Virus record (IMG/VR): IMGVR_UViG_3300045988_182320
Source: a virus
Lineage: Duplodnaviria; Heunggongvirae; Uroviricota; Caudoviricetes
DNA length: 39,937 nucleotides
Reading direction: 5' to 3' (one strand)
How positions within the stretch are numbered: the first letter of the stretch is position 1; every line of letters starts with the position of its first letter. This document shows, one piece after another, positions 21,081 to 28,448 of the stretch. The translations under genes and the position numbers were made by a program. The notes beneath the pieces are model-generated. The model made no database searches. It saw only the letters and a list, made by a program, of their open reading frames with translations, and was not told where the DNA came from.

Positions 21081-21119
21081 TAATAAAAATACGAGACCGT
21101 ATGTATTGCGGTCTCGTAT
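21081..21119 (-). terminator. Rho-independent terminator
   Basis: Perfect 11-bp stem atacgagaccg (21089-21099) / cggtctcgtat (21109-21119), 9-nt loop, followed on the minus strand by tttttatta. Confidence 0.6.
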
Positions 21120-21461
21120 TTACTTGGTTATCTCTTGCTCTTTTTTAAAGAACTCGTATGCAAGATTGTTTGCATCCCAAACAAGATATTTCTTGTTGGT
21201 GTTTCTGAGTGTCTGTTTATCACCTGTTATGGAGTTTGCTATCGTGACGCAGAAGAATCTGCCTCGCTTTACGATTTCGGTTGCCGTATTGTTTGGCGAT
21301 GCCAGTCTTATAGGCTCGTCAAAATTCTCATCAAAAGTATCAAACAATGGTTCGGAAGCCACTGTGGCTGGGCAAGAACTATTGCCAAGCTTGTCGAGAC
21401 CTTTGAGGAGTGCAACTGTTATAATCGCTAGTATCCAGCATCCAAATATAGTCGTAATCAT
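21120..21461 (-). CDS. Small membrane protein (hypothetical)
   Basis: Start placed at ATG 21459-21461 (MITTIFGCWILAIITVALL..., N-terminal hydrophobic helix); the track ORF extends further upstream across a -7 box at 21491-21498. Confidence 0.4.
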   Translation of the reverse strand: MITTIFGCWILAIITVALLKGLDKLGNSSCPATVASEPLFDTFDENFDEPIRLASPNNTATEIVKRGRFFCVTIANSITGDKQTLRNTNKKYLVWDANNLAYEFFKKEQEITK

Positions 21462-23580: not shown

Positions 23581-23617
23581 ATAATAAAAATACGAGACCG
23601 CCCTAACGATCTCGTAT
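23581..23617 (-). terminator. Rho-independent terminator
   Basis: Stem atacgaga (23590-23597) / tctcgtat (23610-23617), 12-nt loop, followed on the minus strand by ttttt; shares an identical 20-mer with the terminator at 21080-21099. Confidence 0.5.
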
Positions 23618-23631
23618 TATATGTTTAACTG

Positions 23632-24039
23632 TTAGACCTCTCTTGAGAGAATCTCCTTGGCTATCTCTTTGGCCTCTTTGCGCCACGACTGATAAGCCTC
23701 GAACTCTGCCTCGTGAGTCTCGTCGCCATCGCCACGGTTGGCTAGGATGGCCTCTACCTGGTTTTGGCTGTATCGGGTGCGAACCAAACCAGCGGTGAAA
23801 TCGTCGTAGGTGGCTGCGGTCGCCTGAATCTTGGTCGAGCCATCAGGCTCTGTGCCCTCATAGCTGTAAGCAGTGACACCCTCGGAGTTTTCATCTTCTG
23901 ACTGCTCTGAGGTATCGGAAGAGCCTGTAGCGGCCTCAGGGTGATAGTTTTCAACTTTCTGCTCACCAGTGTAGAGCAGATAATGGTTATCGTCATATTT
24001 GACGAAGCTCTTGCGAGCTAGATAATACTTCTTGTTCAT
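23632..24039 (-). CDS. Hypothetical acidic protein co-transcribed downstream of the reverse transcriptase
   Basis: 135 aa, ATG at 24037-24039, only 6 nt after the RT stop; D/E-rich, not Avd-like. Confidence 0.45.
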   Translation of the reverse strand: MNKKYYLARKSFVKYDDNHYLLYTGEQKVENYHPEAATGSSDTSEQSEDENSEGVTAYSYEGTEPDGSTKIQATAATYDDFTAGLVRTRYSQNQVEAILANRGDGDETHEAEFEAYQSWRKEAKEIAKEILSREV

Positions 24040-24045
24040 AATTGA

Positions 24046-25620
24046 TCACGTGAATTTATAGAACTTCTTTTTGAATTTATTGTGAAGCTCTGCGACCACG
24101 GTGGAGAAGGGTAGCTCATCACGACAGAAGTCGTTGAGGGCTTGGTCTATCAAGATCTTGGAGCCTGTATAGAGGTAGTGCTCCAGAGGTTGCCATACCT
24201 CGGTGCCGTCTGGCTCCAGGTGGTCGATGATGCGATAGCGTAGGGAGAGGCGCTTCTTGGGCACCTCTTTGGTGACCATGTGGGTGGAGCCGTCCGGGGC
24301 GGTCTCCTCTTGCTGGATGGTCTCCTTCTCTATCACCGAGTCATCGACCTTGTAGTCTATCACTTGAACGAGGAACTTGTTCTCGTCCTGACCCTCACGG
24401 CAGATGATGTCCTCGATGGACTGCTGCTGTGATTTCTCCATACCGTCAAAAGGCACGCGCGCACGGCGAGCCTTGACGAGTTTACCGAATCTTTCCATAC
24501 CGATTTTCTTATATAAGTTTTTAGAGTTTGCGTGGATGCCCAGACCTAGGCGAGAGGCTGCCTTGAGCTGTATCTGGCGGTCTGTGAAGCCCGCCTTGCG
24601 TAAGTTGGCGATCTGTCTGCAGAGGTCGTGCTTGAACCGCTTGCGCAACAGGGCGTGGTCGGCGTAGATGATCTGACCGCAGAAGTCGATGCCATCGCAG
24701 GTGCGGTGGATACCCCAAGACTTATTGATGGATAGGTGCCAGTCACGGGCGAGGTGCATCACGGCAAGCTCTGCCATCAGCCTGAGGAACACCTTATCCT
24801 CGTGGAGGATGTAGATGTTGTCCATGAAGCGGTAATAATGGCGAAGACCTTGGCGGCAGAAGCGCTCGAACCTATCGTTGAGCGACTTCACTCCCCCGCA
24901 TAGCAGTTGAGCTTGCTGCTGAGTGCGACAGGTAACGAGCATGTCGATCACGTAGCGAGCCTGCCAGTAACGGAACTTGTCGGTGTCTTGGAGAATGTCG
25001 AAGCATCGGAGTGCCAGGTAATCGAAGCGGGCGAGGAAGAGCTGACCCAAGAGTTGGGCGAGCTTGACGCCGAGCACGATGCCTGGATTGAAGCTATCGA
25101 CCACCTCGTCGATGAAGGCGAGGAGCTTGCGGTCTTTGATCTTGCGGCGATATTCACTTTTGAGAAGAGCGTGGTCTATGCTCTGAAAATAATGGTGAAT
25201 ATCCATGGGCAAGCAGTAGAAGGTATCTTGCTGTGGCGAGTTGAAGATGTCTCGCTTGACAAGATTATAGAAATAATGGGTGCCCTTGCCCTTGGAACCA
25301 GCCGGACTGTGGCTGTAGAGTGTCTTGCGAAGGTTATCCTCTACAGGTTGCAGGGCAGCGTGCTGGATGACGTGGTCGATAACGGGCAGCTTGTTGACTT
25401 GGCGATGTTTTGGATAGTCGATATCTTTGGCGACATAGGCTGAGGTATGCCAAGTTTGTTGGGTGTAAGCATCGAGCATGCGTCCGATGTTATGGTCTAG
25501 GTTTGCCTCGAATTTTTGGACCGCACGGCGAGACATCTTTTGTCGGGCGTAGTCATAGAATGCCCGACGAAAGTTGTCTAGTGTCTCGACCTGTGGCGAT
25601 ATGTTGCCAAACCTTTTCAT
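24046..25620 (-). CDS. Reverse transcriptase of a diversity-generating retroelement
   Basis: RT motif A LPMDIHHYFQSIDH; motif B-like GIVLGVKLAQLLGQLFL; motif C position reads YYRFMDNIYIL (non-canonical); primer-grip-like DFCGQII; adjacent to the TR/VR pair. Start placed at first ATG 25618-25620; the track ORF begins with GTG at 25689. Confidence 0.8.
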   Translation of the reverse strand: MKRFGNISPQVETLDNFRRAFYDYARQKMSRRAVQKFEANLDHNIGRMLDAYTQQTWHTSAYVAKDIDYPKHRQVNKLPVIDHVIQHAALQPVEDNLRKTLYSHSPAGSKGKGTHYFYNLVKRDIFNSPQQDTFYCLPMDIHHYFQSIDHALLKSEYRRKIKDRKLLAFIDEVVDSFNPGIVLGVKLAQLLGQLFLARFDYLALRCFDILQDTDKFRYWQARYVIDMLVTCRTQQQAQLLCGGVKSLNDRFERFCRQGLRHYYRFMDNIYILHEDKVFLRLMAELAVMHLARDWHLSINKSWGIHRTCDGIDFCGQIIYADHALLRKRFKHDLCRQIANLRKAGFTDRQIQLKAASRLGLGIHANSKNLYKKIGMERFGKLVKARRARVPFDGMEKSQQQSIEDIICREGQDENKFLVQVIDYKVDDSVIEKETIQQEETAPDGSTHMVTKEVPKKRLSLRYRIIDHLEPDGTEVWQPLEHYLYTGSKILIDQALNDFCRDELPFSTVVAELHNKFKKKFYKFT

Positions 25621-25828
25621 AAGCGGTGTAATGTCTGTGTTGAACGGTGTATAAACTGTGTATAGTCTGAATCGTCTGCTTTTGTACACTTGATAACCTT
25701 CGACCGGATGACCGTGTTGTCATCATCTACCAGCTGTCTTATTAATGTGTATGTATCGCCATGGGGCGAGGATTGACCCTGTAATCTCGAAGTGGGAGCA
25801 AACGACCCACGAAGAGATATGTCTGTAA

Positions 25829-25950
25829 GTTGAGGGCGGCGCCGTAGTTCACATTGGCATTCGAGACAGCATTGTTCACGTTGAGCGTCGAAAGACCGCA
25901 TTGACCACCATTGTTAGCGTTAGCACCACGAAGGCAGACACGAAAACCGG
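25829..25950 (-). repeat. DGR template repeat (TR)
   Basis: 122-nt intergenic copy of the target gene 3' region; 110/122 identical to VR; every mismatch is a plus-strand T in TR, i.e. a coding-strand adenine; the same-frame translation carries Asn (AAC) where the VR varies. Confidence 0.85.
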
Positions 25951-25984
25951 CACCTAGGGTCACACCCTGGTATCATAACCGCCG

Positions 25985-25992
25985 CAAAGGTA
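25985..25992 (-). promoter_or_regulatory. Bacteroidota-type -7 promoter box upstream of the TR
   Basis: caaaggta on plus strand (TAccTTTG on minus), about 35 nt upstream of the 5' end of the TR in the direction of TR-RT transcription. Confidence 0.45.
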
Positions 25993-26188
25993 ATAAAAAT
26001 AATCGGTATGGAAGCATGTCAAAGAGCTTTTTTGATGTTTTTATTGATATTTTTTTTGTCGCCGACCGCCACAGGCGGTAACTTAAGGCGAGCTACGCTC
26101 GCTGGGTGCTTCGGCTTCGCCGAGGGTGCTCAGGTCTCTTTTGCACACCCAGTAAACCGATGCACACCCAGCAAACTGATGTAGTCTT

Positions 26189-27661
26189 TTAGGCCGCCTC
26201 GTAATACACGGGTTCAACGGACCACTCGGATGCTGCTTCGCAGAGGGCGGCGCCGTAGTTCACATAGGCAAACGAGACAGCACCGTTCACGTTGAGCGCC
26301 GAAAGACCGCAAGGACCACCATTGTCAGCGCTAGCACCACGAAGGCAGACACGAAAACCGGATGTAGCGCCGCTAGTATTCCAGAAATAGCTAGTCCAAT
26401 AGGTTGACTCGGATGCGCCCGTGGCGGTCGGGAAGTTCTCCAGATGCTCCATCGAGAGCGTCTTGATAAAGCCTTCGCCCTTGGTCGGCGAGGTGCTGTA
26501 AGCCACCATGCCATCGGCGGAACCTATCGTCCACGTGCCGTAGATGGACGGTGCCACGAGATGGGTCACGGAAGTGTCCTCGTTGCAACGCACCTGCTCG
26601 TCATCCATGTGTCGCCACAATAAGCCGAAGCCATTTTTGTAGCCGAAGAAGGATGGTATCTTGGCGGTATAGACCACGGTGCCATCGTCTTTTTTGACCT
26701 CGTAGCTCGCCTCGCCGCAAGCGTCGCCCAGCTCGATGCCGGCAGACATCGGCACGATAGGGCGATAGCCGTTGTAACCACCCCAATCAGGCATCTGTGT
26801 CACGCCAGCTCCGAGACCACCCTGGTAGAGACCGTTGGCATCTTTTTGGCTGTTGATGGCATCCTGGTCGTAGTGGGTGCCGAAGATGACCCCGAAGAGC
26901 ACGGCGATGGCAGAGGTGTGGCGCATGGTGGTGCAGAGCCAGCCTGTACCATTCTTGCGGGCTGCGGCACGCCAGTATTCGGTAGTCTGGTTGGTGGCAG
27001 CCTTGCCCAGCATGGTGCGGTTGGTGTTATCTAACGTTGAGTCGTTGTTGCCGCCTCGGTAGTCTGTGCCCTCGTTGATGTAGCTCACCAGCTTGCCTGT
27101 GCTGCGCTCTAGCGTGGCGAAGCCAGCGGCGGAGATGCTGCCCACAGGTATCTTGTAGTTGTACTCGCCAGGTATTGGCGTAGGGCTGACCATCTCGTAA
27201 TGGAGTCTGCCCACGGTCTTGATGACCATGTACCACTCCTTGCCCCAGCCCCACTGGTAATGCCCCTCTGAGCCATCGAGCTTGGCTGTCTCGCCGGTGG
27301 CATACTTGTGGTGGTCTTTGGAGTCGAGCTTGCGACGGGAGTGGTCATTCTTGACCAGATAACAGCCCAGACCCAGCTCCGTTGGTAGGGTCTGCAGTAA
27401 CTCTAGCGAGCCCACATAAGTGGCGGCTTTAGGGGTTGCATTGTCGAGGTTCCACACTCGACCACACCAAGGATGCTGTCCCATTTGGACGGCGCTTTTG
27501 AGCGACATCTGCTCAGACCTGCCGGATTTTTTGTCGAAGACCTCGACAATCTTGTCAGTGGCGCTCATGTCTGACTGTGGGAGGTCGTCAACCTGTTGAC
27601 CTCCATCGAAAGCGGCTATGATAGCCTTGAGCTTACTCTCTTCTTCTGATGTTAATGCCAT
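26189..27661 (-). CDS. DGR target protein (putative receptor-binding tail fibre) with C-terminal variable region
   Basis: About 490 aa from ATG 27659-27661 (MALTSEEES...; track ORF starts with TTG at 27709); C-terminus ...GFRVCLRGASADNGGPCGLSALNVNGAVSFAYVNYGAAL is encoded by the VR; stop tta at 26189-26191. Confidence 0.8.
   Translation of the reverse strand: MALTSEEESKLKAIIAAFDGGQQVDDLPQSDMSATDKIVEVFDKKSGRSEQMSLKSAVQMGQHPWCGRVWNLDNATPKAATYVGSLELLQTLPTELGLGCYLVKNDHSRRKLDSKDHHKYATGETAKLDGSEGHYQWGWGKEWYMVIKTVGRLHYEMVSPTPIPGEYNYKIPVGSISAAGFATLERSTGKLVSYINEGTDYRGGNNDSTLDNTNRTMLGKAATNQTTEYWRAAARKNGTGWLCTTMRHTSAIAVLFGVIFGTHYDQDAINSQKDANGLYQGGLGAGVTQMPDWGGYNGYRPIVPMSAGIELGDACGEASYEVKKDDGTVVYTAKIPSFFGYKNGFGLLWRHMDDEQVRCNEDTSVTHLVAPSIYGTWTIGSADGMVAYSTSPTKGEGFIKTLSMEHLENFPTATGASESTYWTSYFWNTSGATSGFRVCLRGASADNGGPCGLSALNVNGAVSFAYVNYGAALCEAASEWSVEPVYYEAA
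26240..26361 (-). repeat. DGR variable repeat (VR)
   Basis: 122 nt inside the last ~57 codons of the target gene; differs from TR only at 12 positions corresponding to TR adenines (TR 25830, 25831, 25855, 25860, 25861, 25872, 25873, 25888, 25901, 25902, 25915, 25920). Confidence 0.85.
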
Positions 27662-27683
27662 AATAAAAATTATATTTAATCGA

Positions 27684-28448
27684 TTAAACAATGCGTAATT
27701 TATCACCAACTTTTCTAAGCTTGCCCGATGCCGACAGGCGAAGGCGAGGCTGGCGCACGGTGATGCTGACCTCTTGCCAGAGCGGTGTGTTGGCGGTGGG
27801 GATGACCCAGAACTTGGTGGTGCCCTCGCCCTTGATGATGAGGTTGCCGCTTGGGTCTGCCACGAGCGAGTCGCCCTCGGCTCGCTGGAAGAGCACGCTC
27901 TGAGGGAGGTAGCTCGGCAGGATCTGCACGGCGATGCGCTGAGCCACCTTGTTGCGTAGGCTTATCTCGGGGAGATAGGTCAGGTTCATGCGAGCTGGCG
28001 CGATGAAGCCTGTGGTTATCTGAGCGGCGAGACCATCCATCTGCGCTATCTTGGCATCGGCTCGCTTGGATGCCGCGTCAGCCTCTGCAGCCTTGGTCTC
28101 TGCCAAGGCTGCCTGTGATGCTGCAGCCTCGCCCTGCTCGCCAGCCGCCTTGGCTGCGCTCTGGGCGAGGTTAGCCGCCTTGTTGGCATCGTCGGCCGCA
28201 CCCTGCGCTCTGACGGTCGGTGTCTTGTCGAGCCACAAGCGCCACTTGGCGTTGGTATCTGAAGGAGTCGTCGTGTTGCCATCCTCTAGGGAGGCGAAGA
28301 CTCCTGACGATGTGTGAACGATGTCGCCCTCGTCGTAGCCCTTGACGGTCTGGCCATCCTCATCTTGATAGGAGTAGCCCGACTGCCAGGTGCCCTGGTC
28401 GGTGAAGGCGACATTGCCCACGATAATGATGTTTGTGTTATCTGCCAT
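27684..28448 (-). CDS. Hypothetical protein (tail-fibre region), Ala-rich central coiled coil
   Basis: 254 aa, ATG at 28446-28448. Confidence 0.45.
   Translation of the reverse strand: MADNTNIIIVGNVAFTDQGTWQSGYSYQDEDGQTVKGYDEGDIVHTSSGVFASLEDGNTTTPSDTNAKWRLWLDKTPTVRAQGAADDANKAANLAQSAAKAAGEQGEAAASQAALAETKAAEADAASKRADAKIAQMDGLAAQITTGFIAPARMNLTYLPEISLRNKVAQRIAVQILPSYLPQSVLFQRAEGDSLVADPSGNLIIKGEGTTKFWVIPTANTPLWQEVSITVRQPRLRLSASGKLRKVGDKLRIV

Follow-up and report, generated by a model that had tools for sequence, protein, structure and literature searches.

The DNA analysed here, called the window below, is a 39,937-nucleotide (nt) stretch of a virus of the Caudoviricetes (IMG/VR record IMGVR_UViG_3300045988_182320) that carries a diversity-generating retroelement (DGR). 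Within this cassette a spacer of 238 nt (26188..25951) separates the stop codon of the target gene from the template repeat (TR). We read the spacer, with a probability of roughly 0.65, as a composite intercistronic region made up of the 3′ end of the target-gene transcript, a conserved promoter, and the leader of the TR RNA, whose last nucleotides form one strand of a duplex that brackets the TR. The anatomy of the region, its conservation and its covariation are direct observations, and they are laid out below. Cassette features are on the minus strand unless stated otherwise.

A repeat pair that differs at adenines only and an adjacent reverse transcriptase (RT) place the cassette among the DGRs. 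The 119-nt TR (25950..25832) is 92% identical to the variable repeat (VR; 26361..26243), a direct repeat of it near the 3′ end of the target gene (27709..26189). This gene, taken from the list of open reading frames (ORFs), encodes a protein of 506 amino acids (aa) that matches the tail protein family phrog_5302 (E = 2e-58). All 10 TR/VR mismatches in the window fall at TR adenines of the minus strand. In six relatives they again fall at TR adenines, bar one of the 11 in locus L006, which is at a TR T; another of the six, L027, has no TR/VR mismatches. The RT (25689..24046; 547 aa) lies 142 nt beyond the TR, a gap that holds the Rfam motif RT-17. It matches the reverse transcriptase family phrog_1423 (E = 1e-54) and has no Pfam match at E ≤ 0.01. 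Its best match among solved structures is 8ub7_A, a 328-aa reverse transcriptase (E = 1e-11); we take this entry to be the bRT of phage BPP-1. Close relatives are located in genomes of Segatella (Prevotella) copri (strains OF03-3 and iAP1412, for example, carry relatives), and the host is therefore a Bacteroidota species: the cassette is a DGR of temperate phages of S. copri.

A model's reading of the sequence alone (the sequence-only reading) had drawn attention to the spacer and had proposed conservation across related DGR cassettes as a check on its elements. This comparison was made, and the elements are conserved at RT identities of 58–99% (aa), the range spanned by the 79 loci that an RT-based scan of viral contigs returned. 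One order is shared by 73 of the 79: VR, 51–54 nt to the stop codon, a spacer of 170–263 nt, TR, ~145 nt, and RT. A second scan, with the promoter block as query, found more than 120 contigs with one copy each, after which 117 distinct spacer sequences were at hand. Spacer alignments comprised 52 and 28 distinct sequences, and the duplex alignment 21. Compared with distant relatives, the spacer is 26–65% identical and the flanking genes 60–80%; three islands stand out within it, namely the promoter block (80%), hairpin 1, and the 7-nt AGCACCC. Among the hairpins, the −7 box and the tandem repeat that had been reported, the first two are conserved in more than 100 related S. copri phage cassettes and the repeat is not, neither its sequence nor its copy number being kept. 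The most conserved parts of the cassette against distant relatives are the TR (up to 99%) and the 30-nt tile 26251–26222, which contains a hairpin that follows the VR (96%).

The spacer folds better than its shuffles on the sense strand (z = −3.05; 2 of 200 shuffles do as well) and on the antisense strand (z = −2.86), and in most groups of relatives the sense strand folds 4–13 kcal/mol better than the antisense strand owing to G-U pairs. Nothing in Rfam matches inside the spacer, the sole match being RT-17 beyond the TR. Nothing matches the spacer apart from two faecal phage contigs, both unannotated, so that there is no annotated phage reference for it. A small ORF was considered and rejected: the antisense ORF 26008–26184 shares just its first six residues with relatives, because the underlying DNA block is conserved, and it is between 13 and 58 aa long. 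On the sense strand, each of the three frames is interrupted by stops.

The leader ends in a 13-nt strand, AGGGU-G-UGACCCU (25956..25968), that forms 12 pairs with AGGGUCA-AUCCU (25769..25780), 52–63 nt past the TR. Across the 21 distinct sequences, 99.6% of the alignment cells of this 12-bp duplex are paired and three pairs are compensatory, with changes on both sides. The variable ‘n’ of the invariant AGGnUGUGA is matched by its partner in four pair types (UA, CG, GU and UG). Pairing drops to 25–54% when one strand is slid by 1–3 columns, and RNAalifold recovers the duplex independently from the joined pre-TR and post-TR sequence. G-U pairs are frequent in it, as would suit a sense-strand RNA. 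Two other pairings were rejected. A local pre-TR hairpin, AGGGT-GTG-ACCCT, is 73% paired, shows no compensatory change and does no better than shuffles. A pairing of the invariant GCACC with the leader’s GGnUGU, proposed by RNAalifold, has both sides invariant and its one variable position mismatched in most groups.

The downstream strand of the duplex runs into RT-17 (RF03020; 25672..25773), which scores 59.9 bits against a gathering threshold of 40.4 (E = 4e-11), lies outside the spacer, and is present at 70–82 bits in all seven relatives scanned. The last 5 nt of this strand are the ‘unpaired’ 5′ end of the Rfam model, and the pairing of these first five RT-17 nucleotides with the pre-TR leader is a new point. 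The strand adjoins the first RT-17 hairpin, a 4-bp stem with a tetraloop and one compensatory pair, and 3′ of this hairpin stands the A-rich AUACAUACAC, whose adenines are invariant. Both DGR-RNA elements, the 13 nt just 5′ of the TR and RT-17 past it, had gone unflagged in the sequence-only reading. A separate stem-loop, UCUC..GUGGG / CCCAC..GAGA (25785–25817, minus strand), lies between the TR and the downstream duplex strand. The GUUUGCU in its loop is kept in most sub-lineages and its stem changes (CUGCAG/CUGCAG in the L036 group); this stem-loop may be an element of the DGR RNA for protein binding or priming.

Upstream of the leader, 35 nt from the TR, stands the −7 box TACCTTTG (25992..25985) on which a TR-proximal promoter for a dedicated TR-RT transcript had been proposed. 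It matches TAnnTTTG, the −7 element in the consensus of the Bacteroides primary sigma factor, sigma-ABfr, which is cited with a −33 TTTG in PMC7366714. The box is invariant as TAnCTTTG in the 28 aligned spacers and closes a block of near-invariant columns (25985..26027; GCTCTTTGACAT ... TTyCAT.CCGATT.TTTT ... TAnCTTTG). The tile 26011–25982 is 80% identical to distant relatives, against 26–65% for the remaining spacer tiles. As in Bacteroides sigma-ABfr promoters, then, the −7 octamer is exact and invariant; it is also enriched in this phage (40 TAnnTTTG in the window against 15.5 expected), and canonically spaced sites exist elsewhere in the window, the arrangement TTTG-N19/20-TAnnTTTG occurring at six other places. 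One TAnnTTTG in 238 nt has a chance of about 0.05 and is not improbable alone. A scan of the window’s spacer for promoters of the sigma-70 type or for terminators returned nothing, and no covarying structure is predicted in the block. The invariant TCTTTGAC was considered as a −33 element and ruled out by its 27-nt spacing; it has no convincing further copies in the window.

The position of the −7 box predicts a start region followed by an unstructured 5′ leader of the TR RNA at 25969..25984, and the length from the box to the duplex varies by 6–14 nt in relatives. Since the upstream duplex strand (25968–25956) must be in the TR RNA, a start ~12–25 nt upstream of it fits the −7 box. A dedicated TR-RT transcript from this promoter is likely and is the best reading of the sequence, because an invariant −7 box, a covarying duplex strand ~17 nt downstream of it, and a closing terminator occur together. 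The last of these is a predicted strong intrinsic terminator with a 13-bp stem and a T-run (23589..23618), located 3′ of a 135-aa ORF (ORF135; 23632–24039) that follows the RT and is acidic by sequence.

The three hairpins described by the sequence-only reading lie exactly where it placed them, and its 19-bp tandem repeat (26142–26160 and 26161–26179) is present with copies that are 89% identical. Its suggestion that they are cis elements of the DGR RNA is not supported, as all of them are upstream of the promoter and hence outside the TR RNA made from it. Because of this position, the best explanation of the hairpins and the repeat appears to be that they form the 3′ end of the target-gene transcript, with its terminator. 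Hairpin 1 (26065..26079; sense ACCGCC-TGT-GGCGGT) has six invariant pairs, is 100% paired, and has a pattern that is unique in the 40-kb window, where 0.01 occurrences are expected. In a distant clade of about 80 of the 117 distinct sequences it is a 6–7-bp GC stem followed by CGA and T7–T9, and in L036 it scores as terminator-like, as the window’s own hairpin 1 does not. In the window it is followed instead by CGGCGAC and A8, and in the window’s clade by CGGCGAY and an A-run or a mixed A/T run. The A-rich sense tract (26028..26057, with A8 at 26057..26050) varies in length and takes the place of the distant relatives’ T8. The earlier statement that no T-run follows the hairpins, and that they are not classic terminators, thus holds for the window (no T-run on either strand across 25600–26400) but not for distant relatives, in which T8 follows hairpin 1. 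The stem with CGA and T8 in the distant clade has the classic form of an intrinsic terminator on the sense strand; the window differs in having no T-run, and two more structured elements precede hairpin 1.

The first of these elements is a stem, P1, that is built on the tandem repeat. The repeat consists of two G/U-rich sense copies (26142..26179) that start 9 nt past the stop codon; relatives have two, one or no copies, and its sequence is not conserved. In minimum free energy folds the 5′ arm of P1 lies in the stop-proximal copy (26174..26164) and its 3′ arm (26099..26110) consists of the invariant AGCACCC (26110..26104) and a covarying flank, overlapping the 5′ arm of hairpin 2. With each group folded separately, P1 pairs the repeat unit GGGUG(U)GC with the invariant GCACCC and three variable nucleotides, and the flanking triplets covary in five ways: AGC/GCU, UGC/GCA, GGC/GCC, UCG/CGA and ACG/CGU. 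P1 was recovered in every group, and in the W, L006, L039 and L040 groups the complementary 5′ arm is better than in dinucleotide-shuffled sequence. The AGCACCC columns are invariant in the 28-sequence alignment, and the tiles 26191–26102, which contain the repeat, P1 and hairpin 3, are 39–49% identical, an indication of fast sequence change while structure persists. Hairpin 3 (26111..26123; sense TCGGC-GAA-GCCGA) is an apical branch inside P1; its inner four pairs are 89% paired with two compensatory changes, and in the L036 group its columns belong to one long stem. Hairpin 2 (26088..26102; sense GCGAGC-GTA-GCTCGC) is 88% paired with three compensatory pairs. Its pairing is kept through a swap of the arms, seen in the L039 group (GCGAGC/GCUCGC vs GCUCGC/GCGAGC), and through a G-C to A-U change.

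These parts suggest the following arrangement. The region 26188–26062 would be the structured 3′ end of the target transcript, with P1 and its hairpin 3 branch first, then hairpin 2, and finally hairpin 1 as the putative stem of the target gene’s intrinsic terminator. Such a module most likely halts or dampens read-through from the tail-gene operon, which is highly expressed, and shields the 3′ end of the mRNA, so as to insulate the TR-RT unit from that operon; in the window lineage, where an A-tract replaces the U-tract, termination is probably leaky. The block 26027–25985 would act as a Bacteroidota sigma-A-type promoter that starts a separate TR-RT-ORF135 transcript at about 25980, and the terminator at 23618–23589 would close this unit. 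The 5′ leader of the transcript would be 25984–25951, and its last 13 nt may pair past the TR and close the TR into a loop. The duplex would stack on the first RT-17 hairpin, with the conserved adenosines next to it, and by analogy with BPP-1 this structure could position the template in the RT and make cDNA synthesis end at the TR’s 5′ boundary.

Several observations weigh against this reading. The upstream TTTG of the TR promoter is 27 nt from the −7 box, compared with 19–20 nt at the other window sites; unlike in sigma-ABfr promoters, no TTTG stands ~19–21 nt upstream of the box and the −33 position reads TTyC. The 43-nt block is conserved throughout, a degree of conservation for which a promoter accounts only partly. 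We infer the promoter, the start site and the termination from sequence. Hairpin 1 has no U-tract in the window, so there may be no termination at all. Hairpin 2 is broken in the large L036 group, and in the largest distant group (L036 type) P1 is no better than shuffles, its stem being longer and imperfect. A simple stabiliser or terminator does not account for the strict conservation of the AGCACCC sequence. In the L039 group it is the antisense strand that folds better than the sense strand. Finally, the parallel with BPP-1 is incomplete, because no Avd-like gene was found in the VR–TR spacer, the remaining window not having been searched. What the model does not account for is the GCACCC stem with its invariant sequence and, in part, the excess conservation of the promoter block.

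Three of these points, the missing U-tract in the window lineage, the non-canonical −33 spacing (N27) and a block conserved far beyond the needs of a promoter, would favour an arrangement with no TR-proximal promoter, in which read-through from the target operon supplies the TR-RT RNA and 26027–25985 is an RNA element or a regulator site. We consider this unlikely. Most relatives have a canonical terminator (stem and T8) between the target gene and the block, and the invariant octamer is the exact −7 consensus of the host and is enriched in this phage. An RNA element is also at odds with the lack of predicted covarying structure in the block, and the variable length between the −7 box and the duplex is what is expected of a start region.

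The spacer hairpins might alternatively act at the DNA level in mutagenic homing, with P1 perhaps as a cruciform, and serve as an extension or a second copy of the target-recognition hairpin downstream of the VR. A GC-rich hairpin or cruciform located 3′ of the VR is required in DGR targets, and its spacing has been described as flexible (PMC3240598); the published hairpins lie 4–34 bp from the VR and have a GC stem of 7–10 bp and a GRNA loop (Guo et al. 2011, PMC3240598). The spacer hairpins share with them the character of GC-rich inverted repeats 3′ of the VR, but are 133–177 nt away from it and have 5–6 bp stems with 3-nt loops (GAA, GTA and TGT). Moreover, an invariant minihairpin, CTGC-GAA-GCAG (CTGCGAAGCAG; 26233..26243), already adjoins the VR and is likely the target-recognition hairpin of this DGR, although its 4-bp stem and GAA triloop also depart from the 7–10 bp and GRNA of the published examples. 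The sequence TGCGAAGCAG stands directly 3′ of the VR in all sub-lineages; among 115 distinct upstream regions, 113 have it there.

A role for the spacer hairpins in homing, which the sequence-only reading had raised, draws further on the GCGAAGC core and flank that hairpin 3 and the post-VR hairpin have in common, on the resemblance of the 5′ half of hairpin 3 (CGGCGAAGCC) to the GC-rich end of the VR and TR (CGGCGCCGCC), and on the invariance of the AGCACCC sequence. It also draws on two independent sub-lineages (L026; L046/L191) with a deletion that brings the end of the VR up against the 3′ arm of hairpin 3, an event for which recombination between two 10-nt GC-rich near-repeats would suffice. 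Against it, whole sub-lineages that lack the repeats and hairpin 3, or have them rebuilt, still vary in the VR at A only, and the G-U-rich pairing favours a sense-strand RNA in most groups. Taken with the distances, stems and loops given above and the hairpin already in place after the VR, these data make the proposal improbable. The same judgement applies to its more specific form, in which P1 (GGGUGC/GCACCC core) and the GNA-loop hairpins are a target-side cis element for finding or delimiting the VR and hairpin 3 is a second entry of the kind known as initiation of mutagenic homing (IMH). If that form were true, the two deletions from the VR to hairpin 3 would be footprints of mis-homing, and the RT-RNA complex or the cDNA would make use of P1 and the hairpins in a lineage without a recognisable Avd.

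The deletions themselves remove ~130 nt (L026:3440-3500 and L046:3540-3600, with L191 as L046; window equivalent 26246..26112). They fuse hairpin 3, at its 3′ arm (CGAAGCACCC / GCAAGCACCC), to the GC-rich end of the VR (GGCGCCGC), with loss of the last 17–18 target codons, the stop codon and the tandem repeat. The deletion ends have CGGCG..GCC in common (10 nt, 2 mismatches), and the cause may be recombination between these near-repeats or mis-targeted retrohoming. As to the repeats, the last 12 or more nucleotides of the VR and TR are identical (GGCGCCGCCCTC; window 25833–25850 and relatives), so that no IMH/IMH* difference is visible within the repeat, and the copies part only past CCCTC, where the VR is followed by TGCGAAGCAG and the TR by AACTTA.

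The 19-bp direct repeats, and palindromes with invariant cores, would also suit operators for a DNA-binding phage regulator of TR-RT or tail-gene expression, the more so as the window clade has a near copy of the hairpin 1 palindrome in coding sequence 53 nt upstream of the VR. Yet the repeat varies in sequence and in copy number (two, one or none) while its pairing with the invariant arm is kept by compensatory changes, which is the signature of a structure rather than a binding site. The peptide PTAxGG and codon usage largely account for the upstream copy, and there are no further copies in the window. We regard operators as a quite improbable explanation. The upstream copy shows up as a 16-nt inverted repeat (15/16) that flanks the VR, 26416–26431 against 26062–26077, in which PTATGA codons face hairpin 1 and its 3′ flank; in the window clade no other sequence of the locus complements hairpin 1 and CGGCGAC better than this 16–18-nt stretch, 53 nt upstream of the VR. 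A ‘VR-bracketing’ duplex built on it was rejected: synonymous recodings of PTAxGG already give −20 to −27 kcal/mol (p = 0.002–0.19), and no such complement exists in the clade with T8 after hairpin 1. The complement is mostly a by-product of the coding sequence. That all these features are functionless chance products of a GC-rich non-coding gap, a view helped by the shortness of each hairpin and by the ~5% chance of one TAnnTTTG in 238 nt, is very improbable and is already contradicted by the comparative data, given compensatory conservation in more than 50 distinct sequences, a fold z-score of −3, and a hairpin 1 pattern expected 0.01 times in the window.

Other parts of the cassette were also noted. 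Motif C of the RT reads FMDN (residues 288–291; window 24826–24837; context RHYYRFMDNIYIL) and, by the position of the phmmer match, aligns with the YMDD catalytic motif of the BPP-1 bRT, so that the second catalytic Asp would be Asn. FMDN is also found in L006, L027, L035, L036, L039, L040, L059 and L062, that is, in all sub-lineages checked. The enzyme nevertheless appears active, because VRs differ from TRs almost solely at adenines. No conserved ORF and no Avd-like gene were seen in the VR–TR spacer, the part of the window that was searched for them. ORF135, which has no Pfam or PHROG match, shares a promoter-to-terminator unit with the RT and could be an unrecognised accessory factor. Two long terminator-like hairpins, 21087–21121 (plus strand) and 23589–23618 (minus strand), stand ~2.5 kb apart on opposite strands and have nearly equal stem sequences (AATACGAGAyCG ... 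CGGTCTCGTATT).

With the DGRs of Hankyphage and of crAss-like phages of Bacteroidales, the present system has in common that gut Bacteroidales phages diversify a tail protein. It differs in that its RT is at most 30% identical (aa) to any annotated phage RT in the collection, and in that the spacer matches just two unannotated faecal contigs. The composite reading would provide a map of the wiring of a very common human-gut (S. copri) phage DGR, in which the target is insulated from the template and the TR-RT unit has a promoter and a terminator of its own.

The closest parallel for the bracketed template is provided by BPP-1. In the structure of its DGR ribonucleoprotein determined by cryo-electron microscopy, 11 bp form between the last avd codons and the spacer RNA, within an element termed cPRT Stop that consists, in order, of a duplex, a short stem-loop and A-minor adenosines; this element is needed for cDNA synthesis and is located where the cDNA ends (bioRxiv 10.1101/2023.10.23.563531). 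Our system departs from it in that the upstream strand is a non-coding leader with a predicted promoter of its own and not the 3′ end of avd, in that no Avd gene was found in the VR–TR spacer (the remaining window was not searched), and in its RT, which is 547 aa long and has FMDN in place of YMDD. In sequence, the two hallmarks of cPRT Stop are both present here: a TR-spanning duplex, and a stem-loop followed by unpaired adenosines. The correspondence extends to their layout. The duplex is ~12 bp long, with one strand just upstream of the TR and the other ~50–60 nt downstream; the stem-loop and the unpaired adenosines come directly 3′ of it; and it stops a few nucleotides 5′ of the TR, the point at which the BPP-1 cDNA ends. 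We regard the duplex as the probable counterpart of cPRT Stop and infer its stop function by this analogy. Weinberg et al. 2017 (PMC5737381) proposed RT-10 of BPP-1 as a DGR RNA element and speculated likewise for other RT motifs. RT-17 lies here outside the spacer, past the TR, and the duplex would link this orphan Rfam motif to a defined role. A covarying duplex that would clamp the template as cPRT Stop does in BPP-1 appears in a lineage with no recognisable Avd and with a divergent RT, and for this reason the TR-bracketing clamp is likely to be general.

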